DNA of 64,000 bases. Origin: Microgenomates group bacterium Gr01-1014_5. Lineage in GTDB: Bacteria > Patescibacteriota > Microgenomatia > UBA8517 > UBA10165. The stretch spans positions 26,057 through 90,056 of the forward strand of contig VMGE01000003.1 of the NCBI GenBank assembly GCA_007376395.1. The letters are read 5' to 3'. Every line of letters begins with the position of its first letter. Positions within the stretch are counted from its first letter, which is position 1. Positions 33,225 through 59,200 of this stretch are shown one piece after another. The translations under genes and the position numbers were made by a program. Below the pieces are notes generated by a model that was given only the letters and a program-made list of their open reading frames with translations, made no database searches and was not told where the DNA came from.

Positions 33225-33239
33225 TCAATTGATTTTATA

Positions 33240-34884: not shown

Positions 34885-35091
34885 ATGAATAAAGCACAAA
34901 TCAAGCAACTCAATAAAAAAATTAACCAGTTACTTGAGCGCAGAAAAGCAACGGAAGATCGTGTCATACCGATCCTTACGGCAATAAAGTATGGTATCAA
35001 CTATACTACTAAATATAGTGAGCTTAAGGAAGAAGATTTAGATCGAATGATTAATGGTGAAAGTAGCAATAGAGATATAATTGCGCAATGA
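34885..35091 (+). CDS. Small hypothetical protein
   Basis: ORF track; 4-nt overlap with the next ORF. Confidence 0.35.
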   Translation: MNKAQIKQLNKKINQLLERRKATEDRVIPILTAIKYGINYTTKYSELKEEDLDRMINGESSNRDIIAQ

Positions 35092-35713: not shown

Positions 35714-35769
35714 GGTCTGATTATATCACGGAAGTATCCTACATAATAATCCCGTGCAGAAACTATTTA

Positions 35770-36156
35770 TTACTCATTATCGTCAACATATGATTGCATG
35801 CCTTCCATGAAGGAATTGGAATTACCTGAATAGTTGTCAACATCGTCTTGTGTTATGCCACGTTCTTCTGCCCATTTATATCCCGCTTCGTGTCCACTAC
35901 AATCAACAGTGCAGGGGTACCCATTAAATAGTGGTGGGTCAGAATTTATATTAACATCTTCTTCTGCTTGATTGAGTTCAATATTTTCATTAGAAGAAGT
36001 AGTGGAATCAACTATAGGGGTGGCTGACCTATCATTTGTTGTGGTGCCAGAATTTGACGAGGAATTAAATAAAGAAAAAATTAAAAGAAAAAAAGCAGCA
36101 ATTCCTATAACCCATAAAACTTTCTTAACAGAAATATCGCTCATATTACTTTTCAC
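35770..36156 (-). CDS. Membrane-anchored protein with a Cys/His motif GYPCTVDCSGHEAGYKW
   Basis: TM anchor, Ser/Thr-rich linker and a small C-terminal domain. Confidence 0.45.
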   Translation of the reverse strand: MKSNMSDISVKKVLWVIGIAAFFLLIFSLFNSSSNSGTTTNDRSATPIVDSTTSSNENIELNQAEEDVNINSDPPLFNGYPCTVDCSGHEAGYKWAEERGITQDDVDNYSGNSNSFMEGMQSYVDDNE

Positions 36157-36204
36157 ACGAGAAACTGAACCATTTAGGATCTTAAAATTGGCTTTGTCTA
36201 GAAT

Positions 36205-36867
36205 TTATCGACAATACTTATCAAGTAAGCCATTTAAGCTATTTGTAGCATTTGATGAGCCAATTTCACACACTTGTCGTCCTAATTTAGCAAGATCGCC
36301 GTTATAACATTTATCAATACAATCTAGTGACTCTTGTCCTCTTCTTGTTACACAATCATCATAGCTTGAATAACCATACGAGGTTCTTGTCATTTCGTAA
36401 TTGCAAATATCTAGAGTGATATTTTTACAACCATTGACGCAATTTTGAGTATTGGCCTGTTGGCTATCTTGGCATTGAATATAGTCATTTGTTGAGCTCT
36501 TTACAGCAGTAGAAGCGTCCTTTACAGATTGAACTACTGAAGGATCGCAATAATAAGTGAGCCCATTATGAGATAACACTACCGGTACTTTTTGTGGGGT
36601 AACCGGTTGCGGTGTTGATTTGGAGGTAGGAATATCAATAGTTTTAGAACCTTGAGGATTTTTTATAGAGGTGGGTATTGTAGTTGGAATTAGAGTTGGT
36701 GACGGCGTAGATGTTACGTCAACTTTTTGAATTAAAGGTTGATTACCACTCAAGTTAATTTTTACAACACCATTTTTTACAGCAGCAGTTCCGACAAATA
36801 AAAGAATAACAGTCCAAATTAAGATAGGTATAAAAGCAATACCTTTTTGATTAGTCATTATGGTCAA
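36205..36867 (-). CDS. Membrane-anchored cysteine-rich secreted-type protein
   Basis: TM anchor, Pro/Thr-rich linker and about 12 Cys in the C-terminal 120 aa. Confidence 0.5.
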   Translation of the reverse strand: MTIMTNQKGIAFIPILIWTVILLFVGTAAVKNGVVKINLSGNQPLIQKVDVTSTPSPTLIPTTIPTSIKNPQGSKTIDIPTSKSTPQPVTPQKVPVVLSHNGLTYYCDPSVVQSVKDASTAVKSSTNDYIQCQDSQQANTQNCVNGCKNITLDICNYEMTRTSYGYSSYDDCVTRRGQESLDCIDKCYNGDLAKLGRQVCEIGSSNATNSLNGLLDKYCR

Positions 36868-36890
36868 TTATACTCTTAATTATCTTCGGT

Positions 36891-37238
36891 TCAGTCAGAA
36901 CGCTCAGGTAAAGATTCGCAGGCAATACCATCAGAATCACGATCAAGTCCAAATTTATCATAACCGAAGCAATCTATCTCTGCCTTGTAGAATCCTTTAG
37001 CAGTATCTTTATCGGGAAAATCAGAGCAATCCATGTCTTCTTCATCCTGAACCATAAGGCAATTGAGTTTATTGAGTTCTATCTTCCTTTCGGGGGTCAT
37101 TGGTGGCGGTGTAACAATCTTTACAGTCTCCTGCGAATTTTGATAATCATTATTTGAAAACTGATTATTCAAATTTCTATTTAGAAATAAAATCCCTATT
37201 AGTACCACAACAACCGTTATAAATAAATATTTACTCAT
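36891..37238 (-). CDS. Excalibur calcium-binding domain protein
   Basis: C-terminal DRDSDGIACE matches the Excalibur DxDxDGxxCE motif; N-terminal TM anchor. Confidence 0.6.
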   Translation of the reverse strand: MSKYLFITVVVVLIGILFLNRNLNNQFSNNDYQNSQETVKIVTPPPMTPERKIELNKLNCLMVQDEEDMDCSDFPDKDTAKGFYKAEIDCFGYDKFGLDRDSDGIACESLPERSD

Positions 37239-37329
37239 AGTTCTGATCTAAATATAGCTCAAAAAGATATAAAATGCTAGTTATTGTCTGTAGAGCTATT
37301 GACTACATTTAGCTACAGTTTTAGCTACT

Positions 37330-37542
37330 ATGTTAGCCACTCCTACAAGAAAACAGCTCGGTAAAAAGTTAAGAGAGTTAAGAAAGAAGGCGGGTTTATC
37401 ACAGGAAGAACTTGGATTCCGTGCAGGACTACACAGGACATACATTGGGGCTATTGAAAGAAGCGAACAAAATGTATCGGTTGATAATGTTCATAAGCTG
37501 GCTAAAGCACTTAAAATTCTTGTAAAAGAGCTGTTTGGATAG
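37330..37542 (+). CDS. XRE-family (Cro/C1-type) HTH transcriptional regulator
   Basis: LRELRKKAGLSQEELGFRAGLHRTYIGAIERSEQNVSVDNVHKLAKAL. Confidence 0.8.
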   Translation: MLATPTRKQLGKKLRELRKKAGLSQEELGFRAGLHRTYIGAIERSEQNVSVDNVHKLAKALKILVKELFG

Positions 37543-37807
37543 TATTTCCCCCACTGAGCCAAAATTAGGAGTGTTGACAAATACCCCAAATATGTTTTAT
37601 ACTACATCTATGCTAACAGTAGATCAGGTAGCCGAAAAACTAAATGTTCATAGAAATACAGTTATTAATCTTATAAAGCAAGGAAAAATTCGAGCTATTA
37701 GGATTGGCGATCAGTACAGGATACCAGAGGAGACGTATAGTCAGTTTATTACCGCTTCTGAAGTAAGGCCAGATAATGTGGTCGCAGGGAGCAAAGTTTT
37801 AGGTTAA
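37535..37807 (+). CDS. Excisionase/MerR-type HTH DNA-binding protein
   Basis: LTVDQVAEKLNVHRNTVINLIKQGKIRAIRIGDQYRIPEE is an Xis-family HTH. It overlaps the XRE gene. Confidence 0.65.
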   Translation: MDSISPTEPKLGVLTNTPNMFYTTSMLTVDQVAEKLNVHRNTVINLIKQGKIRAIRIGDQYRIPEETYSQFITASEVRPDNVVAGSKVLG

Positions 37808-37834
37808 TTAGGTTTATATTTAGGTATTTTTAGG

Positions 37835-39376
37835 TTGTCCGGAGTAACCCCGTATTTACGGAAGGTATGCCGCCAAGCGAACAGAAACAGTCGCTGGGCG
37901 GTTTTTTTGTGGCTTTTTTCTGGATGGGAGTTAAAAGCCCTCGTTAGGGTCTCTACCCAGGACGAGAGTTTTTATTTAGAAAAAATGGACAATAAAACTA
38001 ATAAGGAAATCAAAAGATGGTTCGATAGGAACCCGATAACCGAGACGCAAACTCCACAGTGTACTTCGCTTGAAGAAGCGCTGGAAGCTGTCGAGAGAGC
38101 GTTACCAGGTAAGAGAGATATGGCTCTTTTGGCAATGGCTGTTTATATAAGTCGCTTGGTTGATCTGAAAACCCCTTTATGGCTTATGTTCGTTGGTGTT
38201 CCCTCAAGTGCAAAAACAGAAATTGCTCGCATGCTTACTTATGCTCTCTGTATATATTTTCTTGATAGCTTAACCGAAAATGCTTTTGTTAGTGGCTCTA
38301 AAACTAAAACTGGCGAAGAGCCCAAAGATTTATTACCACTTTTAGATGATAAGTGCTTTGTTATTAAAGACTTCACTACAACTTTGTCCCAGAGAGAAGA
38401 GTCTGTAAGGAAGATACTTGGCGATTTAACCTCAATATACGATGATTCTTTTGCTAAACATTCACCTGTAAGAGGCACGATAGAATACCACGCTTTCTTC
38501 TCCCTTTTGTGTTGCGTAACACCGCAGGCTCTAAATCGTCATCAAAGGTATATGAATCAGATTGGCCCAAGATTTTTGTTTTACAGAGTACCGGCCAGTA
38601 TAGAGGAGGAGGTAAATAAAGGATTGGAAGTTTTGTGGTCTTCAGAAGATAGCCGGTCTAGAGTCCGCGAGGCACAAGAGAAAGTCTCCTCTTATTGTAA
38701 CTATATTGAAGAATCGGTTTCAGAGAAACGGCTAGAAAAGGAGAGCAAAGAAGTTATTAGCTACTTGAATAATCTTGCCAAATTTATAGCAAGAGCTAGA
38801 GGGATGGTTTTAACCAGAAATGCAGAGTTTGTAAATAAAGAAGGCGAGACGATTTCTTTTTATGAGCCGGTAGAGATACAGATTGAAGACCCATATAGAG
38901 CGTTGTTGCAATTAAGAGTTTTGGCCAGGTCGTTAGCTACGGTTAAAGGTAAGAGCTCTGTAGCGTTCTCTGAGATGGATTTGGTTAAACAGGTGGCTCT
39001 ATCTTCCATGCCAGCAGACCGCTCACTGCTACTTTCTGTTATTGCCAGAGAAAACAAAGACTGGACTGCTAAGGAAATTGCAGATAACTTGGGTATTTCT
39101 CATAAGACGGCACTCCGGCAACTAGACGAGTTAGTTTCCCTCAAGGTAGTAGTTAAGAGCGAGGGAGGGCTGGGATTAGCTCATATATATAGAATTAAGC
39201 CTGTCTTTGAATCCTTACTTTATAGCAGTACGGAGTTTATGTCCCACCCACCAACCGAGACACAAACTCCACAAGAGACAGTTGTTTCCTCCAATAAAAC
39301 TTCTGACCAGTTAACAGACGGAGAATTACTGAAAATCTTTCTGGGAGCAACGATTAAGGAGTCGATCCATGATTAG
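37835..39376 (+). CDS. Putative replication/primase-associated P-loop ATPase with a C-terminal winged HTH (mobile-element replication protein)
   Basis: Variant Walker A FVGVPSSAKTE, a C-terminal HTH (KEIADNLGISHKTALRQLDEL), and context between Xis and the serine recombinase. Confidence 0.45.
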   Translation: MSGVTPYLRKVCRQANRNSRWAVFLWLFSGWELKALVRVSTQDESFYLEKMDNKTNKEIKRWFDRNPITETQTPQCTSLEEALEAVERALPGKRDMALLAMAVYISRLVDLKTPLWLMFVGVPSSAKTEIARMLTYALCIYFLDSLTENAFVSGSKTKTGEEPKDLLPLLDDKCFVIKDFTTTLSQREESVRKILGDLTSIYDDSFAKHSPVRGTIEYHAFFSLLCCVTPQALNRHQRYMNQIGPRFLFYRVPASIEEEVNKGLEVLWSSEDSRSRVREAQEKVSSYCNYIEESVSEKRLEKESKEVISYLNNLAKFIARARGMVLTRNAEFVNKEGETISFYEPVEIQIEDPYRALLQLRVLARSLATVKGKSSVAFSEMDLVKQVALSSMPADRSLLLSVIARENKDWTAKEIADNLGISHKTALRQLDELVSLKVVVKSEGGLGLAHIYRIKPVFESLLYSSTEFMSHPPTETQTPQETVVSSNKTSDQLTDGELLKIFLGATIKESIHD

Positions 39377-39554
39377 TCAGGAAGCCATTGTGGAATTCAA
39401 AGAGTTGTATTTTCAGGAGTACAAAGTAAAACTTACTGACGAGCAGGCACTTGATTATGGAACAAGGCTTGTAGGACTAGTAAAAGCTGTTTATGGCAAG
39501 AATTTGCCAAAAGTGAATTTTATTGACAAGGATAACAAGAAAGAGAATAATTAA
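39369..39554 (+). CDS. Small hypothetical protein
   Basis: ORF track; 8-nt overlap with the upstream gene. Confidence 0.3.
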   Translation: MISQEAIVEFKELYFQEYKVKLTDEQALDYGTRLVGLVKAVYGKNLPKVNFIDKDNKKENN

Positions 39555-39558
39555 AGGG

Positions 39559-39625
39559 TACTCAAACGGCTGATTGCTTTTTTTGATGGCCGTCTTGGAC
39601 AACCTGAGCAATCAGTTTGAGTACA
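39559..39625. promoter_or_regulatory. Imperfect inverted repeat GTACTCAAACGGCTGATTGCT ... AGCAATCAGTTTGAGTAC (about 28-nt spacer) upstream of the serine recombinase. It is a candidate attP-like site or operator.
   Basis: Seen directly in sequence; 18/21 matched arms. Coordinates are within ±2 nt. Confidence 0.4.
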
Positions 39626-41386
39626 ACCAGGGCGGCCTTTAAAGATTTTATGGAAGAAAAACAAATCTATCTTCGCTATTTGGGGTATGTTCGCAAGAGT
39701 TCAGAAGATAACAAGGAGCGACAAGCCGCTTCCCTCCCCGAGCAGTTATATGTACTCGAAGGAATTAAAGCAAAACACAACTTAACTCTCGTTGATACTC
39801 TCCAAGAATCAAAATCGGCACACAAGCCTGGGCGGGAAATCTTTAACAATATGCTTGCCCGAATAGAGAGCAGTGAAGCAAACGCAATTTTAACCTGGCA
39901 CCCCAACAGGCTTTGCCGTAACGCACTTGATGCTGGACAACTTCTTTATCTCATGGACGAAGATAAATTAGTCGAAATTCGCACACCTTCGCGGACATAT
40001 CGAAATACCCCAGAAGACAAATTTATGTTGACCCTTGAATTTGGTATGTCCAAAAAAGACTCGGACGATAAAAGCATTGTTGTTGAAAGAGGTTTGGAAA
40101 AGAAAGCAAGGGACGGCTGGAGGCCAGGTGTTGCTCCACAAGGATACTTGAATGATAAAACAACAGAGAGTGGCTTTAGAAAGATACTGACTGACCCTGA
40201 AAGGTTGTCCTTTATTAAGAAAATCTTTGAGCTTTTTTCCAATGGAACTTCTGTAGTTGAAATCCACAGAATTGCCAAAGACGAATGGAAATTTCTCTCA
40301 AGACAAAAGAAACGAAGCGGTGGTATACCGCTTTCTTTGAGCATGATTTATAAGATGTTGACTAACCCTTTTTATTGCGGAAAGTTTGAGTATCCAGAAG
40401 GAAGCGGCAAATGGTACGAAGGCGCACACGAACCAGCAGTAGACCAAAAGATATTTGACGAAATACAGGTCAAATTAGGCCGCAGAAGCCAATACAAGCT
40501 CCAACATCACAACTTTGCCTATACAGGTAGTATGGTTCGCTGTGGTTCGTGTAATTCAAGCATAGTAGCCGAGCAAAAATGGCAGTGTATTTGTACCAAG
40601 TGCAAGCTAAAATTCTCGCTTACCAAGAAAAATAAAGAAAGGTGTACTGGTTGTGGGACTCTTATCAAGAATATGTCCGACCCAACTATTCTCCACTATG
40701 TCTATTATCGTTGCGGACGGAAAAAGAATCCGAATTGTAGGGAGCGTGCAGAAAGAGTTGATAGGCTTGAGAAGCAAATTGATGAAAAACTCTCTCAAAT
40801 TGAAATCTCACCCTTGTTTATGGACTGGGCAATACGCCAAATCCACAAGATGAATGATAGTAATAAAGATTTTACAGAAGAAGCCATAGAGAGCATTAAA
40901 CGAGCCCATGACGGATGCAGGGCAAAGCTTACTAACTTACTGCAACTTAAAATTTCACCTGCAAATAGCGATGGTGGCCTTATCAGCGACGAGAAATACA
41001 AGGAAGAAAAGGATAAATTAGAAATAGAGTTAAAAGGAGTAGAAAAACAACTTGTTAATACTGACGACAGAATGTTGCAGGCAAATGAAGAGACTGTAAA
41101 AGCGTTTACTTTTGTTGCCAGAGCAAAAGAAAGGTTTGCAACTGATGATTTGAAAATAAAACGAGATATTTTTTTGGGACTTGGGTCGCACCTAACTTTG
41201 CAAAATAAAACAGTCGGAATTATAGCACCAAAATACATTTATACGATCGAAAAAATGAAAGAAGCTGAGCCGATTATCGCAGAACGGGTCGCACCTGGAA
41301 ATCAGCCTGAATATACGCACCAAATGGAGACATATTTTGCCTCCAATCCTACTCTGTTGCGGGGCCGGGAGTCGCGCCCGGCCTAG
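39617..41386 (+). CDS. Large serine recombinase (phage-integrase type)
   Basis: N-terminal resolvase catalytic domain YLGYVRKSSEDNKERQAASLPEQ with the catalytic Ser. A recombinase domain, a Cys-rich zinc ribbon (CGSCNS...CTKCK...CTGCG) and a coiled-coil follow. Confidence 0.88.
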   Translation: MSTTRAAFKDFMEEKQIYLRYLGYVRKSSEDNKERQAASLPEQLYVLEGIKAKHNLTLVDTLQESKSAHKPGREIFNNMLARIESSEANAILTWHPNRLCRNALDAGQLLYLMDEDKLVEIRTPSRTYRNTPEDKFMLTLEFGMSKKDSDDKSIVVERGLEKKARDGWRPGVAPQGYLNDKTTESGFRKILTDPERLSFIKKIFELFSNGTSVVEIHRIAKDEWKFLSRQKKRSGGIPLSLSMIYKMLTNPFYCGKFEYPEGSGKWYEGAHEPAVDQKIFDEIQVKLGRRSQYKLQHHNFAYTGSMVRCGSCNSSIVAEQKWQCICTKCKLKFSLTKKNKERCTGCGTLIKNMSDPTILHYVYYRCGRKKNPNCRERAERVDRLEKQIDEKLSQIEISPLFMDWAIRQIHKMNDSNKDFTEEAIESIKRAHDGCRAKLTNLLQLKISPANSDGGLISDEKYKEEKDKLEIELKGVEKQLVNTDDRMLQANEETVKAFTFVARAKERFATDDLKIKRDIFLGLGSHLTLQNKTVGIIAPKYIYTIEKMKEAEPIIAERVAPGNQPEYTHQMETYFASNPTLLRGRESRPA

Positions 41387-41733
41387 GAGATTATGCATCT
41401 GTAATCTCTAATTACTCAGAGTGTCGGACTATATCTTCACCCCGATTAAATCGGGGGCTCGGCGTGTAGTCTCTACGGTGTCCCTCCGAAACTTTAGTGA
41501 AGGAGGGTTCCCTCGGTATTACCCTCTATAAGAGTAGGGTTTCACCGATATAGCCAAGTTATCAAGAAACATTACTGTTAAATGTGCCCAATTTGAGCCT
41601 CCTGTGCAACTCTACACTACCCCGCATGTCTCTTACCAACTGAATTATAACAGATGCAGGCTCGAATTAAAAGCCTCTTGACTACCAATAGAATAGCTGT
41701 TATGGTGATAGTTAAACCACATAACTTTATACA
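41387..41733 (+). other. Highly structured ~345-nt non-coding region with several perfect hairpins. Candidate ncRNA or attachment-site region.
   Basis: Hairpins CCCCGATT-taaa-ATCGGGG, CCCTCC-gaaactttagtga-GGAGGG and CTCT-ata-AGAG; no ORF; GC is higher than in surrounding intergenic DNA. Confidence 0.3.
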
Positions 41734-42423
41734 TTGATCAGGAAACCCCTAGAAAAACAAAAAGCTCAAGAGCTACGAAAGCAAGGCAAGAGTATCGGAG
41801 AAATAGCACAAGAACTTGGAATTTCAACCTCAACAGTTAGCTTGTGGGTAAGAAATATTACTTTAACAACTGAGCAGAAAAAACGGCTTGAAAATAAGGT
41901 GTTTACTACCCTACAGAAAGGTAGGATTATCGCCCAGGAGGTTCAAAAACAATTAAGAGACAATCTCAAAAGAGAAATCTCTGCCGAAGCCGTACTACAA
42001 CTCGGAAAACTCTCAAAAAGAGACCTTTTTATTGCCGGAATTATCCTATATTGGACAGAGGGTTTTAAAAAAGATAATCGGTTAGGATTTGCAAATTCCG
42101 ACCCACAAATGGTCAAGTTATTCTTAAAATGGCTTTATACCTTGGGAGTACCAAAAAATAGTATCCGTTTAAGAGTTGGGATAAATATTAGCCACAAAAA
42201 GAGAGTTAAGGTTATAGAAAAATATTGGTCTAAACAAACCAACATCCCCCTTTCTCAATTTCAGAAGCCCTTTTTTCAAAAATTTATATGGAAAAAAGAA
42301 TTTCCTGATCCAAACTTATACCATGGAGTTATAAGAGTGCGTGCCATAAACCAAGGCAGATTGTTCATAAAAATACTTAAATGGATAGCATTGGTAAGAA
42401 CTTCAAATAATACTTTGCTATAA
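41734..42423 (+). CDS. HTH plus LAGLIDADG-like homing endonuclease fusion (paralog B; TTG start)
   Basis: ELRKQGKSIGEIAQELGISTSTVSLWVR HTH; FIAGIILYWTEGFKK. Confidence 0.6.
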   Translation: MIRKPLEKQKAQELRKQGKSIGEIAQELGISTSTVSLWVRNITLTTEQKKRLENKVFTTLQKGRIIAQEVQKQLRDNLKREISAEAVLQLGKLSKRDLFIAGIILYWTEGFKKDNRLGFANSDPQMVKLFLKWLYTLGVPKNSIRLRVGINISHKKRVKVIEKYWSKQTNIPLSQFQKPFFQKFIWKKEFPDPNLYHGVIRVRAINQGRLFIKILKWIALVRTSNNTLL

Positions 42424-42429
42424 TAAAGT

Positions 42430-42780
42430 GTGGCTCTGGTTCTAATAGCTCTCTTCTGGTTTTGGCCAATACTTCTTTCCTTTGCCACAATTTTTATTTA
42501 CGGATTACTGACCCAAAAAATCGGGAACGAAAGGTTTGTATATTTGGTAATTATTAGCTTGGTTTTGGCACCAATTGCGCTATCTGCACAAGCCTTCTAT
42601 GTTTGCGGGTTGGATATTGACTATTACCATAATTGTAGCTTGAGCGAACGCTTAAACGAGGTTAGTAAATTTCTTCCTTCGATTATTAGAGGTTCAACTT
42701 TTTTATTAAGCGGTGTTTACTTTTCAATTTTTTACCTCGCAATACTTGCTAAACACTTAAAAAACAAGTACTTGCATTAA
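42430..42780 (+). CDS. Hypothetical membrane protein
   Basis: ORF track; 3 TM helices. Confidence 0.4.
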   Translation: MALVLIALFWFWPILLSFATIFIYGLLTQKIGNERFVYLVIISLVLAPIALSAQAFYVCGLDIDYYHNCSLSERLNEVSKFLPSIIRGSTFLLSGVYFSIFYLAILAKHLKNKYLH

Positions 42781-43130
42781 AAAAATAGTCTCATCCAGCG
42801 TTGGTATATTGGCTCTTCTTCAGCAAAATGCTCCTGGTCAAACTCCGGAGCAAGACGCCGCAAAACCTCATCTGCCGGCAAAACCACAACCACTTCCCCG
42901 GGTTTGGCTAAGCCTAGCTTCTCCCGAGCCTCTTTTTCCATAAATTCTTGGGATTCTACTTGTTCTTTAACTTCCAAAAGACGAGCCTGTTCTGCCTCTA
43001 ACTCGCGGACTCTAACTTCAGCCTCTTTAGTCGCGTCACCCCGCCCCAAGAGCTGAAATGTCGAACGCCCCATAGAAACTATCAAAAAGAGCGATAATGC
43101 CAAAACTATCCAATGTGTATATTTCTTCAT
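42777..43130 (-). CDS. ftsB: Septum formation initiator FtsB/DivIC-like
   Basis: N-terminal TM helix, a coiled coil and the conserved EKEAREKLGLAKPGEVVVVL C-terminal motif. Confidence 0.7.
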   Translation of the reverse strand: MKKYTHWIVLALSLFLIVSMGRSTFQLLGRGDATKEAEVRVRELEAEQARLLEVKEQVESQEFMEKEAREKLGLAKPGEVVVVLPADEVLRRLAPEFDQEHFAEEEPIYQRWMRLFF

Positions 43131-43227: not shown

Positions 43228-44094
43228 ATGGCTACAACTAAAACATTAACCGATTTAAAACTGGACTTTGTTCGTAATCTTGAAAATACAGGACGTGCCT
43301 CAGCTACCATTCTAGCTTACAGAAAAGACCTTGAGCAACTTATTGAGTATTTAGAAAAACAAGGGAAAAACACCATTGAGCCTATCAGACCTCTCGACAT
43401 CGAGGCTTTTCGTGATTCCTTAAGGAGCCAAAATTATACTGACAAATCAGTCTCCCGCAAGCTAAACGCGGTCAAAACTTTCTTTGGCTGGCTGGTAACC
43501 CAGAAAATTTTAGAAAATGACCCAGCAGCGCCCGTTGCCCACCCCCGCTACGAGAATCCACCCCCAAGAATTCTTACCCGCATGGAGTACAGGGCTTTGC
43601 GTGACGCCGCCCGCGGAGATTTGCGCATTAGCGCTATTATCGAGTCAATGCTGCAAACCGGAATCCGTATTGGCGAGGTTTCCAATCTAAGACTAGAGGA
43701 CGTCCAAGGAGATAAAATTTTAATCAAGGCGTATGAATCTCAACCAGAACGCGAGATTCCCTTAAACGAGCCGGCAAAACAAGCTTTACATCAATACTTA
43801 GCAATCCGCCCCAAGGCACAAACTACTCACGTCTTTGTGACTAAAACAGGCCGTCCGCTACTCGTCCGCAACATAAGGAGTGCTATTGACCGCTATTTTA
43901 AAGAAGCCGGCATAGAAGACGCCAAAGTAAACGACATGCGCAACACCTTTATCGCCCACCAACTAAAGTCGGGTGTCGATATTGTCACGGTCTCCAAAAT
44001 TGCCGGGCACAGAAGACTCTCAACCACAGAGCACTATCTTCAGTTTGTTGAAAGAAAAGAGTCCCGCCGCGGAGCAAAACTAGACGAGCTCTAA
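43228..44094 (+). CDS. Tyrosine recombinase (XerC/XerD-like)
   Basis: R...H-x-x-R...Y pattern: GIRIGEVSNLRL, ...HQLKSG..., and C-terminal IAGHRRLSTTEHYLQ. Confidence 0.85.
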   Translation: MATTKTLTDLKLDFVRNLENTGRASATILAYRKDLEQLIEYLEKQGKNTIEPIRPLDIEAFRDSLRSQNYTDKSVSRKLNAVKTFFGWLVTQKILENDPAAPVAHPRYENPPPRILTRMEYRALRDAARGDLRISAIIESMLQTGIRIGEVSNLRLEDVQGDKILIKAYESQPEREIPLNEPAKQALHQYLAIRPKAQTTHVFVTKTGRPLLVRNIRSAIDRYFKEAGIEDAKVNDMRNTFIAHQLKSGVDIVTVSKIAGHRRLSTTEHYLQFVERKESRRGAKLDEL

Positions 44095-45881
44095 ATAATT
44101 CCGCATAGATATAGCGCTCTTCTTTGGTTTTGGCTATATTGATCCATATTACCCCAAATAAATGATTTTTCAATTGACCGAACTTCTTCTTTAGAATAAG
44201 TCTGCCCTCCCATAGAATAACCATTAGAATACATGTACCGAATCCCATGATCTTCCGCCCTATTAGTGGGGTGATCGGTATGATTTCCCGAGCGAGTTCC
44301 CAACTCAATTGCTAATTTAACAGTTTGCCATGTAGCCTCCCAACTATCTCTATCCCAAGCCCACATCCCTCCCGTGTGGATTCGAAAACCTAACCTCTTT
44401 AATGTATCCACAACTGCAACATCTCGAACTTTTGAAGCAAGAACCTCCCTGATAGATTGCAAACCGTTATTAAACTCAGTCGCACTAACAACCCCTGCAG
44501 GAAAAAGACTGTAAGCCTCTGACGCTAAATCCTGAATTGTATGGTTCTTAAAGTACTCTTGAAGGTCTATTCCCTCCCAAAGATTCCATATGCTTTCCCA
44601 GAGAGCATTATTTTTTGTGTCGTATACCTCAAGACCTTTTTGATATCTTATTCGATCAAACAATCCATCTCCTATTTCCCTCTTCATGTATTGCACAAAA
44701 CTAGACTTGTCGTCTTTAACTCTTTCAAATAGCTGATTAATCGTCACCGGTGAAAGAGACTGGTCATACTTAATTCTGGTTATTCTCTCTTCTTGTAATT
44801 CCTCTCCTTGTAAACTTTGAGTTTTTCCACCTTCAACAAATACGCTTCCTTCTGGCATTTCAAAACTTCCACCAACGGGCAGTTCCCAAAAGGAATCAAC
44901 TGTATTAAGCTGGGTTGGTTTACCGTTGGCTTCCAAAGCTGACTTAAAAGGGATAATAACAGCATATCCAGCTCCTTCCCAGGAACCATACATATGAGAC
45001 ACAACCGGGTGGTTCATTGAAAAATGTAGTGTTGTGCGAGGAGATAAACCTCTTGTTGAATCAAAGGTAGAGCGAATTTCATATCGCCCAGTTTCAGGAT
45101 TCATTACTGGTTTAAACCTTGTCAAGTGCACACAAACCAACTCCTCTACTTTTAAGGCTTCCTGGGTGACTGGAAAATTTTTGGAGTGCTCGAGAAGTTT
45201 TTCATTTGCTTGGGCGTCTCTTTCTTGGTCATGTTTTTCTAGCTGAGCCAACTTTTCAGAAGATAAAGTTTTCGCAGCTTCATCACCTATTAACAAAAGC
45301 ACTGCTAAAACCTCGCCTTCTCTTTTGTTTTCCTTATTAGCCGCAACTCCGTTTGTATCAACAATATTTCCAGCTACTACCCTATCAATTAAATCTCTAA
45401 CTTGCGGGGTAAACTTCCAATTAACCACTGTTAATTTTCTTGCTTCTCTAATTTGAGAATCATTCCCGCCCAAATGGAAATATAAATCCAGTAAACCCTG
45501 AGGGCTTGATTCAACAAGAAAAGTCGCTTTTCCGTCGTTTAAAGCTTTTTGGTATTCAGGACCGCTCGATCCGCTTGTTTGTTCGCTTTTAATTATTCTG
45601 GCAGCTTGGGGTACTTTTTCTTGTCCTTCACGGGTTTTTAAGCTTCCTACGGGTACAACCAATCTATCTTTTACCAAATCCCCGCCACTGGTCGGTTCAC
45701 CGCGGCTAAAAAATATAGCTTCGACTTTTTGCCCCTGTTTCGTTGTAAATTCGTAAGCATAAATCGCTCTTCCCTCCTCGTCAACCCCTTCTCTTCTTTG
45801 GAAAGGATATTCTTTCGGAGGTTCTGACGGCTTAATTAATTCACTTTGTGAAGCAGTTAATGTTTCAGCTACTTCTGGCAT
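44091..45881 (-). CDS. Large hypothetical cytoplasmic protein (596 aa)
   Basis: ORF track; no TM helices; no motif I can recognise. Confidence 0.5.
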   Translation of the reverse strand: MPEVAETLTASQSELIKPSEPPKEYPFQRREGVDEEGRAIYAYEFTTKQGQKVEAIFFSRGEPTSGGDLVKDRLVVPVGSLKTREGQEKVPQAARIIKSEQTSGSSGPEYQKALNDGKATFLVESSPQGLLDLYFHLGGNDSQIREARKLTVVNWKFTPQVRDLIDRVVAGNIVDTNGVAANKENKREGEVLAVLLLIGDEAAKTLSSEKLAQLEKHDQERDAQANEKLLEHSKNFPVTQEALKVEELVCVHLTRFKPVMNPETGRYEIRSTFDSTRGLSPRTTLHFSMNHPVVSHMYGSWEGAGYAVIIPFKSALEANGKPTQLNTVDSFWELPVGGSFEMPEGSVFVEGGKTQSLQGEELQEERITRIKYDQSLSPVTINQLFERVKDDKSSFVQYMKREIGDGLFDRIRYQKGLEVYDTKNNALWESIWNLWEGIDLQEYFKNHTIQDLASEAYSLFPAGVVSATEFNNGLQSIREVLASKVRDVAVVDTLKRLGFRIHTGGMWAWDRDSWEATWQTVKLAIELGTRSGNHTDHPTNRAEDHGIRYMYSNGYSMGGQTYSKEEVRSIEKSFIWGNMDQYSQNQRRALYLCGII

Positions 45882-45933: not shown

Positions 45934-47844
45934 TTATTCCGTTCTCTTTTGGCTTACTGCTCCGGGGATTTTTTCCCAATCGCGATTCTTCCTTACTTTT
46001 AAGTTCTTGTTCCAAATAGACTCAAATACAGATAAATCCACTTGTAAAGCTCGAGCTAAGCCCAAAAAACCAACAAGGTCTTTAGGAAAACAGTTATGGA
46101 CAACTGCATCTGCTAAGACGTATGTGTGATTTTTACTAACCTCAAAGTTATAAACTTTTCCTTCATAATCAACCTCAGTAATTTCTTTAATAGGTATAAA
46201 AAAGAAGTCTTTCTCGAAAAAAGAAGTCTTACGTAGAAGTTTAAGGTCTTTTTCTAGTTTGTCGTCGATAATCTGACTAAATTTCTGAATATCGGAATAA
46301 TTCCTAATCCTAATAAAGTAGGCTGTCTTATGATTTACTCCATCCCTACCTGTTCTCTCTTGTGCGATCCTGGTAGAAAAACCAATTTCCAAGCTTAGTA
46401 AAATCAATTTTAATTGATAAAATAAATCCTGAGAAATAGTCGCCATACTATAAACTCCGGTTGATTTGCTACCGTCACCTCTAAAATAACCTTTCATAAA
46501 CTCAGTTAAACCCTTTCTGTTTGATGATAAAATTTTTACACTTAGACGTTTTTTCGCACTCATTTTACCGCAATTTTCCTCAAGTAAGTTAGCTAGTTTC
46601 TGTGAACTACACCGTAGATTAAGTGCATTTCCTACCCCTCTTCTGTGTGTAACTAAGCTGAAATTCAGCTTCAATATTTTCTCAATATCCTCTACATAAG
46701 TAGATTCGTTTTTGTGGAACCCAAATGTTATTCTGTTTTTCACACCTATGTGTCCCTCTGCTACATAATATCCAAAGAGCCGCATAACACTATTATTAAA
46801 ATTTTTCGTACCATTTTTAACTTTAGGTAAAACTATAAAATCTCCTTTTTGTAATTCTCGAGCTGGTACCCACTCTAAATTAAGATTGCCGTTATAATTA
46901 GTAAGCTTTTGTCTTTTAATTCCATTATATTTTCTTCCGGTTTTTACAGCATATACAGGATGTTCACTTGTAAGGGTAAATCCCTGCAACCCCTGTCCTC
47001 TTATAAAAATAAGTTTCTCATTTACCTCTCTTTCGTGCCTTTCTAAAACTTTTTGACAACTTCCATCTATTGTTAGAACAGAATCGCCAAATTCTACTTC
47101 TCGAACGAATTTTATTCCTCCGTTTACATAGACTTTTGTTTCAGGATGTAAACATTTCCCGCCAAATCCCATATCCCCGTCCGGGCCGGGAACTTTCAAA
47201 TGCCCTCCAATTCTCGGGTCTGCCTGTACCATTTCGCGGACATCGTCATAATTTACTTTTAATTTATCTGCTAAACCATGTATTTCATTTGCCAAAATAA
47301 TTTTGGCGGACAATAGCGCGTTGGAAGCAAATTTTGCAAGTTCAACAGTCGTTGGATCACTTAAGAAATATTTCGCGTCCTGGGGGTAAATTGCCTCGTA
47401 TAAAGCCTTGATTCTTTCAGCGATACTTTTATCAAGAGCTCCTATCAAGGTTCTGTCTGGGTGTAAAAAGTCATTTTCTGGCTGTTTTTCAGTTAAAAAT
47501 TCGGGGTTGAAGGCAAAATTTACATTAGAATATTTTTCGCTGAAACTTTTAGTTGTTCCGGGGATAACTGTTGATTTGATAATTAATACTTTTTCCGTAT
47601 TAACCAAAAGTGGAGCAAAATTACTGACTGCCTCCTCTACTACAGAAATATCTGTTCCGGAATAATCAGAAAACATAGGTGTGGGGACACAGACAAATAG
47701 AAAATCTGAAGCCTCGACCAATTCTTCGACACTTAGCCCGCCTTCTTTATATGGGTCGTGCCACGCAACCTCGTGTGAGCTTTGAAAACCCTTACCTGTT
47801 GCTTGTCCTACAACTCCCCAACCAATAATACCAACCTTTGCCAT
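45934..47844 (-). CDS. Nucleotide-sugar (UDP-glucose/GDP-mannose) dehydrogenase-family protein interrupted by an intein. The C-terminal extein is unusually short (52 aa).
   Basis: N-terminal Rossmann GIIGWGVVG, and a catalytic-site GFGGK-[C...VVHN]-CFPKD split by the intein. Confidence 0.8.
   Translation of the reverse strand: MAKVGIIGWGVVGQATGKGFQSSHEVAWHDPYKEGGLSVEELVEASDFLFVCVPTPMFSDYSGTDISVVEEAVSNFAPLLVNTEKVLIIKSTVIPGTTKSFSEKYSNVNFAFNPEFLTEKQPENDFLHPDRTLIGALDKSIAERIKALYEAIYPQDAKYFLSDPTTVELAKFASNALLSAKIILANEIHGLADKLKVNYDDVREMVQADPRIGGHLKVPGPDGDMGFGGKCLHPETKVYVNGGIKFVREVEFGDSVLTIDGSCQKVLERHEREVNEKLIFIRGQGLQGFTLTSEHPVYAVKTGRKYNGIKRQKLTNYNGNLNLEWVPARELQKGDFIVLPKVKNGTKNFNNSVMRLFGYYVAEGHIGVKNRITFGFHKNESTYVEDIEKILKLNFSLVTHRRGVGNALNLRCSSQKLANLLEENCGKMSAKKRLSVKILSSNRKGLTEFMKGYFRGDGSKSTGVYSMATISQDLFYQLKLILLSLEIGFSTRIAQERTGRDGVNHKTAYFIRIRNYSDIQKFSQIIDDKLEKDLKLLRKTSFFEKDFFFIPIKEITEVDYEGKVYNFEVSKNHTYVLADAVVHNCFPKDLVGFLGLARALQVDLSVFESIWNKNLKVRKNRDWEKIPGAVSQKRTE
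46093..47154 (-). mobile_element. Intein (354 aa) with a LAGLIDADG homing-endonuclease domain, inserted at the catalytic Cys of the dehydrogenase
   Basis: Begins with Cys (CLHPE...) and ends ...VVHN followed by a +1 Cys. Contains LAGLIDADG-like LFGYYVAEGHIG. Confidence 0.75.
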
Positions 47845-48101
47845 TATTTTTGTGTCCTTAATGAGGTTATCTCCTCGTCTAATGTATGTATATATCCTTC
47901 CAAAACCTTAATCTGTGAGTATTTTATTTCAGAAGATGCGTTTTCGTGCCTGACGCCATGAAAATACTTGTAACGCTCTGTGAGTTCTGCCTCAGCTTCC
48001 ACTCTTTTCTTTTCAAGCTCCTTAATTCTTTTACCCGGCGCCATTTTACGCAAAGCTATAATTTCCTTAATTGTTGTTCTCTTGGGACGATAATTAGGCA
48101 T
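47844..48101 (-). CDS. Small hypothetical protein
   Basis: ORF track. Confidence 0.4.
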   Translation of the reverse strand: MPNYRPKRTTIKEIIALRKMAPGKRIKELEKKRVEAEAELTERYKYFHGVRHENASSEIKYSQIKVLEGYIHTLDEEITSLRTQK

Positions 48102-48227: not shown

Positions 48228-48908
48228 TCAAGTCCGAAGTCTCCTGACATATTCGTCAGATACAACCTCTATGCTCATTAAAATCTTCTCGATCAGATCC
48301 CTGCCGTTTACTATCAAATTACAAGTGCCGTGACCGATACCCTTATAAGTTAAGCCTCGTAGTGTTGTTTCTTTTATATAAGGTTTTATAAATTTGCCCT
48401 CAGGAATCCTTAGCTCCTTACTCCAAAATGCAATTTCCATCTTTTGATCCATATCTTTATATAGATGCAACCTAATAGTTATTTTATCTTTTGGAACTTT
48501 AAGAATTTTAATTAGCCAGTAAAGAAAAAATTTTACTACTTTAGGATTAGTGTTACTCAAACTCGTTGCAAATGGCGTAGTCTTTGCTCCCTCACCCCAA
48601 TAAAGAAATAGTCCTGCAATTAACAGTTCTCGCTTCGTTAAGGGCAGTAATAATTTCTTTTGGTGGTCATATACAGCTTTCCGTCTAGTAGTAGTTTTTA
48701 TTCTCCATGTCTCTCTAAATCTCTCAATACGTTTTTCGCTATTTGCCCTCAGTTTATTTATTTGCTCTCTACTTAGAGGATATCCGCGAAGCCACAAACT
48801 AAGACTGCTTTTACTTACTTGAAGTTGTTCTTTTATATATGAATAGCTAAAACCTTGCTTCCTTAATTCTAAGGCTTGAAGTCTCTTCTCAGTCAGTGGA
48901 GCAACCAT
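48228..48908 (-). CDS. HTH plus LAGLIDADG-like homing endonuclease fusion (paralog C)
   Basis: ELRKQGFSYSYIKEQLQVSKSSLSLWLR HTH; LIAGLFLYWGEGAK. Confidence 0.6.
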   Translation of the reverse strand: MVAPLTEKRLQALELRKQGFSYSYIKEQLQVSKSSLSLWLRGYPLSREQINKLRANSEKRIERFRETWRIKTTTRRKAVYDHQKKLLLPLTKRELLIAGLFLYWGEGAKTTPFATSLSNTNPKVVKFFLYWLIKILKVPKDKITIRLHLYKDMDQKMEIAFWSKELRIPEGKFIKPYIKETTLRGLTYKGIGHGTCNLIVNGRDLIEKILMSIEVVSDEYVRRLRT

Positions 48909-49026: not shown

Positions 49027-49434
49027 TCACTCCATGCCATTAGATTCTAGCTTCGCAAAGGCTTTCTGAAGTTTTTCATCGAATGTTGCAAATTTATCTG
49101 CATTGTTTTTCTTTGCATAAAAAAGATTGAAGGAATCTGGTAAATTAAATCTTGTTGTAGAATAGTGCTCAACAGCCAGAGTTAGTGACTCTCTATAATC
49201 AAGTTGAATAAACTTTAGGTCTAAAATTTGTCTCAATTCTTTCACTAATTCCCTTCTGTCTTTTTTATAGACGCTTTTCAACACCCAATAAACTTCAAAA
49301 ATTACAATAACAGAAGTAAAAAGTTTAACTTCTTCTTTCGCCCCCCTTAAAAGAAGTTTTTCTGCTTGTTTATGTTGAGAAAGATTATCTTTTAGAAGAA
49401 AGCGCAAGAATAAATTAGTATCAATAAAGATCAT
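49027..49434 (-). CDS. PIN-domain toxin (VapC-like)
   Basis: MIFIDTNLF... first-strand Asp and downstream acidic residues; overlaps the antitoxin gene by 4 nt. Confidence 0.75.
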   Translation of the reverse strand: MIFIDTNLFLRFLLKDNLSQHKQAEKLLLRGAKEEVKLFTSVIVIFEVYWVLKSVYKKDRRELVKELRQILDLKFIQLDYRESLTLAVEHYSTTRFNLPDSFNLFYAKKNNADKFATFDEKLQKAFAKLESNGME

Positions 49435-49709
49435 TTTTCGTATTTTGCAGAATAATGTTCTTTAATTGCCAATTCTATAATCTCATCATCGCTCATTCCT
49501 CTAAATCTCTTTGGCTTCTTTACAGACCCTGCAAGACGTTTAACTAAAGCAACCGCAGACTCGACTTTTAAAATTCCATTGTCTTCATTGACTACAACTC
49601 TATCCCCCACTTTAAGCCCTGCTTTTCTGAAGACTTTTACAGGAATTGTAAGTTGTCTTTTACTGGTAATAGTAGCCATTGACATTGTAAGGAAATTATA
49701 TAAAAACAA
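49431..49709 (-). CDS. AbrB/MazE/SpoVT-type antitoxin
   Basis: SKRQLTIPVKVFRKAGLKVGDRVVV swapped-hairpin motif. Confidence 0.7.
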   Translation of the reverse strand: MFLYNFLTMSMATITSKRQLTIPVKVFRKAGLKVGDRVVVNEDNGILKVESAVALVKRLAGSVKKPKRFRGMSDDEIIELAIKEHYSAKYEK

Positions 49710-56294: not shown

Positions 56295-59200
56295 CTAGCA
56301 TTCTGAGTGTCCACAGCCGTAGCATTTTGAACAACCTTCTTCGTGAACAAATGCGGCTGCGCCGCACATCGGACAAAGGTCGGCTGCGGTTTTTTTAAAG
56401 TCAGCAGCTGGGGCCGGCGTGGGGTCAGGGTTGTGCGCCGCCATGACAGCCCCAGCTTGCAAATTAGGTGTCGATTCAGAGAAGCCATTTTTCTCTGAAA
56501 CCGAGTCAGACTCGGTGGTGTGTTTCCCGTTCAGCCCGAAATGGCGCGAAAGCGCGAGGGCGATGGCGTCTGGAACCGAGCGCACCCGATTAGGTCCAAA
56601 CCCAATTGAGTTGCGTCCTCCAATTCCCGATAACTGGTGAATAATCTCGTGTACTTTACCTAAAGGCTTACTGTTGCCGCGAATCCTAAAAGTCATCGAG
56701 AGTAATCTGCCAAACGCTTCTGCCATGGCGTTAACGTCAGAACCAGCTTTGCCGATATTGATAAAAACTTCGACCGGGTTGCCGGTAGGGTCTGTATTGA
56801 TCGTTATAAACGCACTGCCCAGAGGAGTCGCCATGCGGTAGGTTACGCCTTCTAACTTTTCCGGTCTTTGCACTAAAAGCTCATGTGATTCAACCGCCGC
56901 AGCCGGCGTAAGAGTAAGTTGCTGAGTTAAACCTCCCTCTTCTGCCGTAGCTTGAGCTTCGGTTTTTACAGGTTCCTCTTTGGAAAGCACACCGGGACGA
57001 CTGCCGTCTCTAAAGAAAGTTATCCCTTTGCATCCCAAGTCGTAAGCCATCATGTAAAGTTTTTTGACGTCGTCTACTGTATATTCATTTGGCGCATTCA
57101 CGGTTTTAGAGATTGAGGCGTCAACATAACGCTGAACAGCCGCCTGTACTTTAACGTGGTCTTCAGGAATTAGGTCACTCGATGAAACAAAATAATTTGG
57201 AATCTCTTCTCCTGGGTGCGCTTCTTTCCACGCTTGGAATAACGGGTGATAAATGTTGTGCTCCCCAATTCTGTCGCGTCGGACAAATGAAAACTCATAT
57301 ACCGGCTCAATACCCGAAGTTACCTCTGACATCAGAGAAGTTGAACCAGTTGGCGCCTGCATTAAAAGAACCGAGTTTCTGATCCCCTGTTTTTTAATCA
57401 TTGCCTGGATTCTTTCTGGTAATTGGCGGATAAATAATCCTTGAGCATATTTTTCGCGGTCAAATTTAGGGAAAGATCCTTTTTCGCGGCCAATTTCTGA
57501 AGACTCCTCAAAGGCCGCGTCACGGATTAATTTATAGATTTTCTCGACTACTTCAATTGATTCGTCAGACCCGTAACGAATCCCCATTTTAATTAATGCG
57601 TCTCCCAGCCCCATGGTTCCAAGACCAATTCTTCTTTCCCCGTCCAATTGCGTCTTGCGGATTCCGTCGAAGATATAGATATCTCCATCAATAACATTGT
57701 CTAAAAACCGCGTCGCAACTTTAGCGTGTTCTTCCAAGGATTTGTAATCCATAACACCTGTTTCATTGACAAAAACAGCCAAGTTTAAAGAGCCTAAGTT
57801 GCAAACTCCGTACGGCGGCAACGGTTCCTCACCGCAATTTGAAATAATAAGACCGTTAGCTGCAAACTGGTGAATTTCTGCTACGGTAATATCAAACACC
57901 TCTTCTACCCTATCTTTCTCTAAGCTCTCAAATGTTGCTTCAAAAGTATTTTTATAAGGCCCTTTTTTGTAAAGCGCCAAACTTGTACGTAATTTTTCCT
58001 GCTTTTCTTCTTGCAAAAAGCCAATAAATGCGGCAAAGCTGGCAACTCCCTCTCCAGAAATTACTAAATCGTGATACGCTTGGGTTGGATAAAGTTTTTT
58101 ACCTCCTTTACCGTCGGGCATCATCCGGTCCTGAGCCAGCCTGCGGTTTTTATAAATTCGGCTAACAATTCCAAAGTTTATTAATAATCTCTGGACATTT
58201 ACCAAAAGCTCTTCGCTCACCGATGTTAGTCTTACGCTTACTCCTTTTTCCGGGGTTCCTGCAACGTGTCCGTCACTTGAGAAAATACCCTGCAAAAATC
58301 CTCTCTGCAGGGCCTCTGACCCGCCAAAAATAGCGTCCGGAACGATAAGTTTCGCGCCGTGAGCAAAGCCCAAAGACTGAGCAAGTTTTAATAATCTTTC
58401 TGATTTAACAACTGCCTTGTTTTCTTTTTGAACATAGATTGGAGAAACTGTATATGCTCTGCCATTAACTCCCGTGTCCCCTACCATTGCTTGTACTGCC
58501 GCAGCAAACTGAGGTGCAAGTTCTGTTTTTTCTTGCTGATAAAAGAAAAGTTCCGCTCTTTCTTTTTTTACCGAACCGTCACCTACAAGCCAGCCCCAAA
58601 CTCTTCCTTCTTCAACCGTACCCACACTTCCAAAAGCGCCATATTTATTAAGTAAAATTTTATCACCTGTTTTAAGTTTTCCTGCTTCTACTTTTCCGGC
58701 AGGAGTATAAACTTTATGGTCCTGGGTTAGTCGAAGGCGATAACCTTCTTTAGTTTGCAATTTATATACTTGTTTAACTCCGGTTAGAAAAGGTTGCGAA
58801 GAAAGATACTCTTTGCCGCCGACCACTGCTTTGAAAGGCTTGCCTGCCTCATAAAGCTTACGCATCGGGAAAATTCCTTGGCTTGTGGTAATCAGCGTGT
58901 CTCCTGTAACACAAGGATTAGTGCAATTCAGATAATTGAAGTAATAGTTGGAAGAAAGCTTGTTTGTCCTTTCCATAAAATGAAGTCCAGGCTCTGCAGA
59001 TTGCCAAGCCGCCTCACAAATAAGATCCCAGAGCTCGCGAGCTTTAATAGTTTTGTAAATTTTTACCTTACCGCCTGATTTAATCCAGTTATCAAGAATG
59101 CCGTCCCATGCCGTGTCATAAAGCGGGTCATCTAAATCCGGAAAGAGTAATGGCCAATCTTCGTCTTTTTTAACTGCCTCCATTAAACGGTCAGAAACAC

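Follow-up and report, generated by a model that had tools for sequence, protein, structure and literature searches.

The 64,000-nucleotide stretch of DNA analysed here (the window; positions 26,057 to 90,056 of contig VMGE01000003.1 from Microgenomates group bacterium Gr01-1014_5) carries a gene of the UDP-glucose/GDP-mannose dehydrogenase type that is interrupted by an intein at its catalytic cysteine. The complete precursor open reading frame (ORF; 45934..47844, minus strand, 636 aa and a TAA stop; GenBank TSC90028.1) is best read, with a probability of roughly 0.8, as an intact intein in a bona fide, naturally short member of its family that is under purifying selection. The two-domain architecture of the host is ancestral to a large family and does not reflect truncation, while the inserted element is a typical class 1 intein with a LAGLIDADG endonuclease at the catalytic nucleophile, an ordinary and intact active-site case. 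An original prediction made from the letters of the window had placed an intein at this cysteine with the same junctions, and both the translation and matches to Intein_splicing, LAGLIDADG_3, PF03721 and PF00984 bear it out. For the host, it had offered a truncated, decaying pseudogene kept as an intein carrier or a minimal dehydrogenase variant. The second option agrees with the data, as the spliced 282-aa product fits a family of short two-domain proteins, while the first is refuted by the homologues, substitution rates and synteny described below.

Translation gives the junctions as ...GFGGK / CLHPE...(354 aa)...VVHN / CFPKD..., and the spliced product, consisting of extein only, measures 282 aa (230 + 52 aa). 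The N-extein (aa 1-230, 47155..47844, minus strand like all features of the gene) comprises an NAD-binding Rossmann domain of reduced length and the greater part of the central domain, and ends in GFGGK. It contains the Rossmann motif GIIGWGVVG (47806-47832), KSTVIPGTT (47551-47577), NPEFLTE (47488-47508) and, within the central domain, ELAKFASN with K171 and N175 (47299-47343). The C-extein (52 aa, 45937..46092) starts at the catalytic Cys codon (46090-46092; CFPKD at 46078-46092) and holds the last central-domain helices together with a family-specific tail, WNKNLKVRKNRDWEKIPGA (45958-46014). The 52 aa that had originally been counted after the cysteine are correct as the length of the C-extein including that residue; 51 residues lie beyond it and close with a clean TAA at a domain boundary. 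The accompanying figure of about 130-170 aa for canonical enzymes roughly holds, the C-exteins of longer intein-bearing hosts measuring 111-174 aa. Read-through or a frameshift concealing a C-terminal domain was rejected, as all three downstream frames hold stops or the next, unrelated 596-aa ORF.

In a Pfam scan, the spliced extein matches PF03721 (E = 9e-23; residues 37-147 correspond to profile positions 68-186 of 187) and PF00984 (E = 1e-19); PF03720, the C-terminal UDP-binding domain, is not matched. The N-terminal NAD-binding domain is about 30 aa shorter than the canonical one, a point absent from the original prediction. The top solved relatives in a PDB sequence search are UDP-glucose dehydrogenases (UGDHs), 3vtf being the best (E = 4e-30). 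An AlphaFold2 model built with a 118-sequence alignment has a predicted local distance difference test (pLDDT) score of 95.6, with 86-93 in the tail, and a predicted template modelling (pTM) score of 0.91. Its best PDB matches in Foldseek are UGDH structures, with a template modelling (TM) score of 0.80 when normalised by the query and about 0.5 when normalised by the targets, and the model therefore matches the first two UGDH domains only. The host shares the fold and active site of the UDP-glucose/GDP-mannose dehydrogenase family and probably works like its members.

The short form is found far beyond this gene. With the spliced extein as query, a homologue search yielded 4,519 matches at E <= 1e-5 among 5.8 billion proteins. 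The best 120 of these measure 261-350 aa, share 52-91% identity over 89-100% of the query (mostly 99%) and contain only PF03721 and PF00984; the named ones belong to Microgenomates, Blackburnbacteria or Patescibacteria. In the family alignment of 118 sequences, the spliced sequence aligns without gaps to 117 intein-free homologues through the GFGGK-CFPKD junction. Invariant columns comprise the Rossmann glycines G8, G10 and G13, E115 of NPEF, K171, N175, C231, K234 and D235, as well as W257, N260, R264 and W269 in the tail, while K259, L261, K262, K265, D268 and A275 are kept in at least 90% of sequences. As invariant columns fall in both regions, the tail is as strongly conserved as the active site. 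Its signature is W-x-x-N-x-x-x-R-x-x-x-D-W-x-x-[IL]-x-G, with WNKNLKVRKNRDW as the version in the window protein. That homologues share the short C-terminus with four invariant residues is the very observation that had been named as speaking against a truncation.

At least 550 relatives were confirmed when one genome of each GTDB species was scanned. Uninterrupted ORFs at the best 80 loci span 266-306 aa, with 38-68 aa from Cys to stop (mostly 41-59), and the W..N...R...DW..[IL].G tail is present in most, being kept in DPANN and marine bacterial members. Bacterial sources of the scan include Daviesbacteria, Paceibacterota, Saccharibacteria, Marinimicrobia, SAR86, Bacteroidetes, a Pelagibacter metagenome-assembled genome, Legionellales and Vermiphilus, and archaeal sources are Woese-, Pace- and Nanoarchaeota and Parvarchaeum. 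At least 573 more relatives, nearly all of the short type, occur on IMG/VR viral contigs. Short forms are also present in cultured phages (Campylobacter phage CP220 gp019, 256 aa; Phage C48C1, 319 aa), where they are annotated as "UDP-glucose dehydrogenase".

The closest intein-free allele (P0001 at locus L001, 91% protein identity) was compared with the window gene by the Nei-Gojobori method. The ratio of nonsynonymous to synonymous substitution rates (dN/dS) is 0.10 overall, and the N-extein and C-extein each give 0.10 as well; the gene is not decaying. The position of the gene is common to several Microgenomates genomes that are only 54-62% identical in the dehydrogenase protein. The conserved order runs from a TraG-like/DUF8128 ATPase through variable genes to the short dehydrogenase, XerC (opposite strand) and DivIC, followed by a class-I aminoacyl-tRNA synthetase, FtsH and a 5'-3' exonuclease, and is the same in the window.

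The intein itself (354 aa, 46093..47154) has the class 1 arrangement of Cys1, a terminal His-Asn and Cys at +1, and a LAGLIDADG homing-endonuclease domain is embedded in it. CLHPE (47140-47154) forms block A, LTSEHPV (aa 291-297, 46954-46974) block B, VYNFEVSKNHTYV (VYNFEV..H, 46117-46155) block F and AVVHN (46093-46107) block G, and the two LAGLIDADG motifs are LFGYYVAEGHIG (aa 356-367, 46744-46779) and FMKGYFRGDGSKS (46462-46500). Matches to Intein_splicing (42.2 bits, cut-off 35.8) and LAGLIDADG_3 (PF14528; 37.4 bits, cut-off 22.5) are clear of their thresholds, and that to TIGR01443 intein_Cterm is borderline (15.3 against a cut-off of 15.6). Block B and Cys1 are conserved in 5 aligned relatives, and Cys1 is shared by every one of the 29 relatives inserted at this site. 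The acidic residues of the two LAGLIDADG motifs are retained (YYVAEG, FRGDG), and both motifs are conserved in the aligned relatives. Based on this anatomy, the precursor would be translated as a 636-aa protein that is inactive before splicing, since it cannot be active with the GGxCxxKD loop split. Cys1 would undergo an N-S acyl shift, and the +1 Cys, which is also the catalytic nucleophile, would then attack the thioester. Cyclisation at the His-Asn terminus would free the intein, and an S-N shift would restore GFGGK-CFPKD and yield the 282-aa enzyme.

A HMMER search with the intein against 1.84 billion representatives gave 95 matches at E <= 1e-30, and the fetched ones were parsed together with matches from an earlier intein search. 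Related inteins at the same Cys form 17 short-host clusters (C-extein 35-52 aa) and 12 longer-host clusters (C-extein 111-174 aa), and the junction in all 29 is G-G-x / C...HN / C-x-P-[KR]-[DE]. Two of the longer hosts (P0224 and P0223) score above the PF03720 cut-off, with weaker sub-threshold matches in two others. When P0224 served as query, about 17 intein-bearing relatives with three domains were recovered (795-848 aa; one is from Nitrososphaerota), along with intein-free UGDHs of about 450 aa that share 60-65% identity in the extein regions. Same-Cys inteins were also found at locus L011 and in a Daviesbacteria genome (L017), and longer matches on two viral contigs (L091 and L092, junctions unparsed) suggest inteins there. 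Because short and longer hosts have the intein at the same Cys, the insertion point is common to the superfamily. The closest inteins are 52-53% identical to that of the window and lie in hosts with exteins 34-37% identical to the window protein; phage contigs with portal, Mu-F, capsid, tail-tube and tape-measure genes carry two of these inteins.

Homing would explain how divergent hosts, short as well as longer and some of them phage-encoded, came to carry related inteins at one Cys. The endonuclease domain would cut intein-free alleles at the conserved active-site codons, and the intein would be copied in. The GC content of the intein is 33.3% (25% at third codon positions, GC3), against 38-41% in the exteins (GC3 34%). 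Compared with P0001, the synonymous rate dS is 0.28 over codons 1-170, 1.9 over codons 171-230 (the 60 before the site) and 0.71 in the C-extein, while dN/dS is low throughout; such a high-dS tract is the pattern expected from flanking co-conversion in homing or from other local recombination. The two closest intein-free alleles (P0001 and P0002) read GGK-CLVKD and not GGK-CFPKD, with five base changes in the two post-Cys codons (fused site DNA GGATTTGGCGGGAAA / TGTTTTCCTAAAGACCTT, CLVKD-variant DNA GGGTTTGGCGGAAAA / TGCCTCGTAAAAGATTTA); Pro occupies +3 in 116 of the 118 family members. Imprecise excision of the intein was rejected as the source of CLVKD, which is not derivable by joining intein and extein ends, and point substitutions are more likely. 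Perhaps CLVKD is an endonuclease-resistant variant of the homing site, or one selected for resistance, which is an attractive hypothesis. The low GC of the intein, the high-dS tract around the site and the rarity of the CLVKD variant all fit homing.

Alternatively, the intein could be a dead relic that may still splice, with an inactive endonuclease and vertical inheritance only. Its presence in only a few genomes and contigs among hundreds would suit such a state, as would the low identity of 52-53% to its nearest relatives, because of which no recent transfer is documented; its presumed activity, moreover, is read from motifs. A relic is nevertheless less likely than not. Both LAGLIDADG motifs retain acidic residues, and the endonuclease region is conserved among relatives, the intein being more conserved than its hosts. 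Its presence and absence also differ between alleles 91% identical in protein, with the high-dS tract at the site, and its GC content is foreign to that of the gene.

Other inteins occur in and around these loci. The class II ribonucleotide reductase of the window (56295..60083, minus strand, 1262 aa; Ribonuc_red_lgN/lgC and TSCPD) has a second intein with LAGLIDADG at about aa 435-749, and its intein-free homologues in L002 and L004 are 782-849 aa long. FtsH in the window (26814..28727, minus strand, 637 aa) is intein-free, and in L001 (3953-7106) it exceeds 1069 aa and matches Intein_splicing and LAGLIDADG_3, while the L001 dehydrogenase is intein-free. Intein presence is thus reciprocal between close relatives, FtsH and dehydrogenase carrying opposite states in the two genomes. 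The phage contig at L006 has a further intein in a Mu-F-like head protein.

As to the activity of the host, the short protein is rather more probably than not a nucleotide-sugar 6-dehydrogenase, judging from its residues and from the gene neighbourhoods of its relatives. In UGDH, as known from the Streptococcus pyogenes and human enzymes, the catalytic set consists of the Thr of STVxPGT, the Glu of NPEF, a Lys and an Asn on the long helix, and the Cys and Asp of GGxCxxKD. The short protein retains this entire set. The mature enzyme would most likely oxidise a nucleotide sugar at C6, probably UDP-glucose to UDP-glucuronate, by means of these Thr, Glu, Lys, Asn, Cys and Asp residues, and the family-specific 20-aa basic and aromatic tail would probably replace part of the role of the missing UDP-binding domain. 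About even odds go to the wider reading in which a class of mini-UGDHs of about 280 aa, spread over Patescibacteria, DPANN archaea, streamlined marine bacteria and many phages, would carry out UGDH chemistry with the tail, possibly across a dimer, holding the nucleotide, while one intein lineage would move between phage and cellular alleles with the common active-site codons as its homing site.

Gene context in other lineages points in the same direction. The short gene at an archaeal locus (L033) overlaps with the beginning of a UDP-glucuronate decarboxylase (UXS) orthologue, which in a PDB sequence search matches human UXS1 (4gll) at E = 9e-107 and 360 bits, the next family reaching 132 bits; NCBIfam naming of the UXS-like gene gave generic short-chain dehydrogenase/reductase (SDR) matches only. 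UXS-like genes also flank the short gene in L039, L059 and L076. In L043, the downstream gene resembles the UDP-glucuronate 4-epimerase of B. cereus (6zl6, E = 6e-61) and is followed by a putative Wzx-like flippase (identified by eye only). An extended SDR lies within 3 kb of the short gene in 22 of 80 loci, and on phage contigs the short gene is found beside TupA-like ATP-grasp, family 2 glycosyltransferase (GT2), methyltransferase and cytidylyltransferase genes. Since the short gene adjoins a UXS orthologue in other lineages, a nucleotide-sugar 6-dehydrogenase is probably what it encodes. Five proteins of about 770-814 aa (P0303, P0314, P0325, P0392 and P0394) consist of a full canonical UGDH and an extended-SDR epimerase/dehydratase domain (PF01370, PF16363), and these apparent natural UGDH-UXS/epimerase fusions support the functional link behind the context argument.

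On two phage contigs (L006:7001-10275 and L007:7001-15860), an intein-bearing short dehydrogenase is located in or next to the structural module. Its neighbours are TupA-like ATP-grasp, rhamnosyltransferase-like, GT2, methyltransferase, cytidylyltransferase and polysaccharide deacetylase genes, a set that looks like a phage-encoded glycan-synthesis cassette.

Several points weigh against the proposed enzyme and its restoration by splicing. Neither in the window nor at the Microgenomates loci L012-L031 is there a gene for glycan synthesis or UDP-glucuronate use near the short gene, and the functional context argument is therefore borrowed from other lineages. The context in L061 is ambiguous, as a separate canonical dehydrogenase is present there beside a TviC-like epimerase. 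In solved UGDHs (1DLI, 2Q3E), the canonical UDP-binding domain supplies substrate contacts, which leaves nucleotide-sugar binding without it putative. The host lies outside the three-domain definition of a UDP-glucose/GDP-mannose dehydrogenase: PF03720 is absent, and the TIGR03026 score of 171.1 bits (model positions 70-296 of 413) is below the cut-off of 189.8. At position 119, most of the family has Gln in place of the second Glu of NPEFLxE. No characterisation or biochemistry of any two-domain member was found in the literature searched, and for the intein, both autocatalytic splicing and endonuclease activity are predicted from motifs.

These points leave some room for a genuine enzyme outside nucleotide-sugar chemistry. 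Its substrate would be an alcohol or aldehyde without a nucleotide (a free sugar, a sugar phosphate, a polyol or a lipid-linked sugar) or, in Microgenomates, another compound of cell-envelope or nucleotide metabolism. Such a role could follow from the missing UDP-binding domain and the shortened N-domain, and two-domain dehydrogenases with a Rossmann and a 6PGDH-C-like domain that act on small substrates are common. The Microgenomates gene has no glycan neighbours and is near ribonucleotide reductase, a MazG-like gene, a TraG-like ATPase, XerC and DivIC. In Campylobacter phage CP220 (L009), gp019 (record 14033-14803) lies between QueE-like and other radical-SAM genes and not among sugar genes, a hint that the pathway may differ for some of the short members. 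This alternative is nonetheless improbable. The conserved Cys, Lys, Asn, Asp, Glu and Thr set is that of a two-step, four-electron oxidation via thiohemiacetal and thioester, and the GFGG-C-FPKD loop, a UDP-sugar contact in solved UGDHs, is intact. The operon-like arrangement with UXS, which uses UDP-glucuronate, also opposes it, as do the nucleotide-sugar enzymes nearby in archaea, marine bacteria and phages.

The UDP-binding domain could instead be supplied in trans by a separate polypeptide, through a split gene or a partner subunit. Split multidomain enzymes are common in reduced genomes, and an ORF of 85 aa (47844..48101, minus strand) is translationally coupled upstream: its TAA stop shares one base with the ATG of the dehydrogenase (TAATG), an overlap that makes co-translation of the two probable. 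This ORF encodes a coiled coil without similarity to PF03720 and is conserved in close relatives only, the same arrangement with the dehydrogenase being present in the intein-free relative L001. A search for a separate C-domain ORF, as had originally been advised, used tblastn with ten canonical C-domains and a hidden Markov model (HMM) built from those ten. Nothing significant was found in the 64-kb window by either method, and beside the short gene in 170 loci the HMM found nothing except the separate full-length canonical gene in L061; as a positive control, it recovered the canonical Bellamy phage gp227 (E = 1e-16). A domain provided in trans is thus very unlikely. Finally, a truncated, decaying pseudogene that persists only as the carrier of a selfish intein has next to no probability, for although 52 aa from the catalytic Cys stand against 111-174 aa in longer hosts, PF03720 is absent and TIGR03026 scores below its cut-off, hundreds of homologues end alike with invariant tail residues, dN/dS is 0.10 in both exteins with all catalytic residues kept, the fold prediction is confident throughout including the tail, core-genome synteny is conserved, the stop is clean and at a domain boundary, and an assembly or gene-calling artefact is excluded by the 266-306-aa homologue ORFs inside long contigs.

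Pfam and PHROG scans of the two neighbouring ORFs of 85 and 596 aa gave nothing informative. The 596-aa ORF (44091..45881, minus strand) lies between the dehydrogenase and XerC and is a singleton 90% cluster. The dehydrogenase adjoins XerC directly in L001, L002 and L005, and in L004 a different 263-aa ORF lies between them.

Further, putatively mobile, features are found in the vicinity. About 12 kb of sequence (~30400..42700) separate DivIC (42777..43130) from the genes for the aminoacyl-tRNA synthetase and FtsH. GC content falls to 35-37% in part of this stretch (30-38 kb), compared with 40-46% elsewhere, and the stretch encodes a large serine recombinase (39617..41386, Resolvase and Recombinase) and helix-turn-helix (HTH) proteins. 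The corresponding gap is only 1-5 kb in L002, L004 and L005, and the stretch is probably an integrated mobile element. Two paralogues, one of 226 aa (48228..48908, minus strand) and one of 229 aa (41734..42423, plus strand), are 34% identical (E = 5e-27) and have an N-terminal HTH_23 as well as an internal L-x-I-A-G-[LI]-x-L-Y-W-x-E-G that is reminiscent of LAGLIDADG. They may be free-standing homing-endonuclease-like or DNA-binding genes, and one of the two is situated two genes upstream of the intein-bearing gene. Two ORFs of 92 and 135 aa that overlap each other (49027..49709, minus strand) resemble, by eye, an AbrB/SpoVT-type antitoxin and a PIN-domain (VapC) toxin, and related loci have PhdYeFM/PIN and ParE pairs at comparable positions.

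Inteins at the catalytic residues of conserved enzymes are the rule, and catalogue entries for inteins in UDP-glucose dehydrogenase date back to the first archaeal genomes. The intein of the window adds no new kind, as its host family is already known to harbour inteins. As a site common to phage and cell genes, its insertion point provides a tidy example for tracing gene flow between bacteria of the candidate phyla radiation (CPR) and viruses. The two-domain UGDH-like family is the more interesting by-product. It is widespread, generically annotated ("UDP-glucose dehydrogenase" or "hypothetical") and not specific to the window, and it is the sole part with real potential for novelty. If this family makes UDP-uronic acids, it would represent the smallest known architecture for UGDH chemistry and would redefine the parts of UGDH needed for nucleotide-sugar recognition. 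Such a mini-UGDH would then bear on how ultra-small cells make glycans and on glycosylation encoded by phages. For annotation, the lesson is that, in CPR or DPANN genomes, a length below that of the textbook enzyme is no evidence of decay.

In agreement with an insertion point common to the superfamily, the literature counts UDP-glucose dehydrogenase among the classical hosts of inteins; its "udp" allele is old and widely dispersed and has been reported in Halobacteria, Methanococci, Dictyoglomus and others (PMC2874743; PMC4071816). Like that allele, the window has a LAGLIDADG-endonuclease intein in a gene of the UDP-glucose/GDP-mannose-dehydrogenase family. The InBase entry 'Mja UDP GD' is the 'udp' intein of Methanocaldococcus jannaschii. 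The longer hosts (734-859 aa, some of them three-domain) have inteins 30-35% identical to that of the window, with the catalytic Cys at +1. The insertion point in the window would thus appear to be the classical 'udp' site, judging from these longer hosts and not from the named archaeal proteins; named classical hosts (M. jannaschii, halobacterial) were not among the matches of the P0224 homologue search. The window host has two domains whereas 'udp' hosts have three, and the closest relatives of its intein are in short hosts of phages and Patescibacteria. Among solved inteins, PI-PkoII of the Thermococcus kodakarensis DNA polymerase (2cw7) is the closest by sequence (E = 6e-11). It shares the HINT and LAGLIDADG organisation and similarity in blocks F and G with the window intein and differs in host protein and insertion site, with low similarity outside the endonuclease core.

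Literature searches for the short form and for inteins of this gene in CPR bacteria yielded only general remarks on UDP-glucose dehydrogenase as an intein host (PMC2874743, PMC4071816) and a phage paper in which a short homologue is named "UDP-glucose dehydrogenase" (PMC3322345). The short genes of Campylobacter phages CP220, CP21 and IBB_35 (gene 2-32) and of Phage C48C1 likewise combine a Rossmann and a 6PGDH-C-like domain in 256-319 aa. Annotated by similarity only, they are 28-31% identical to the window protein, intein-free and set among different neighbours. Canonical UGDHs (UGDH/Ugd/HasB; 3vtf, 3gg2, 1dli, 2q3e; TIGR03026) have the same NAD-binding and central domains and the same GFGGxCFPKD loop. 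Compared with them, the window protein is without the PF03720 domain and about 30 aa of the N-domain, and has a conserved tail instead.

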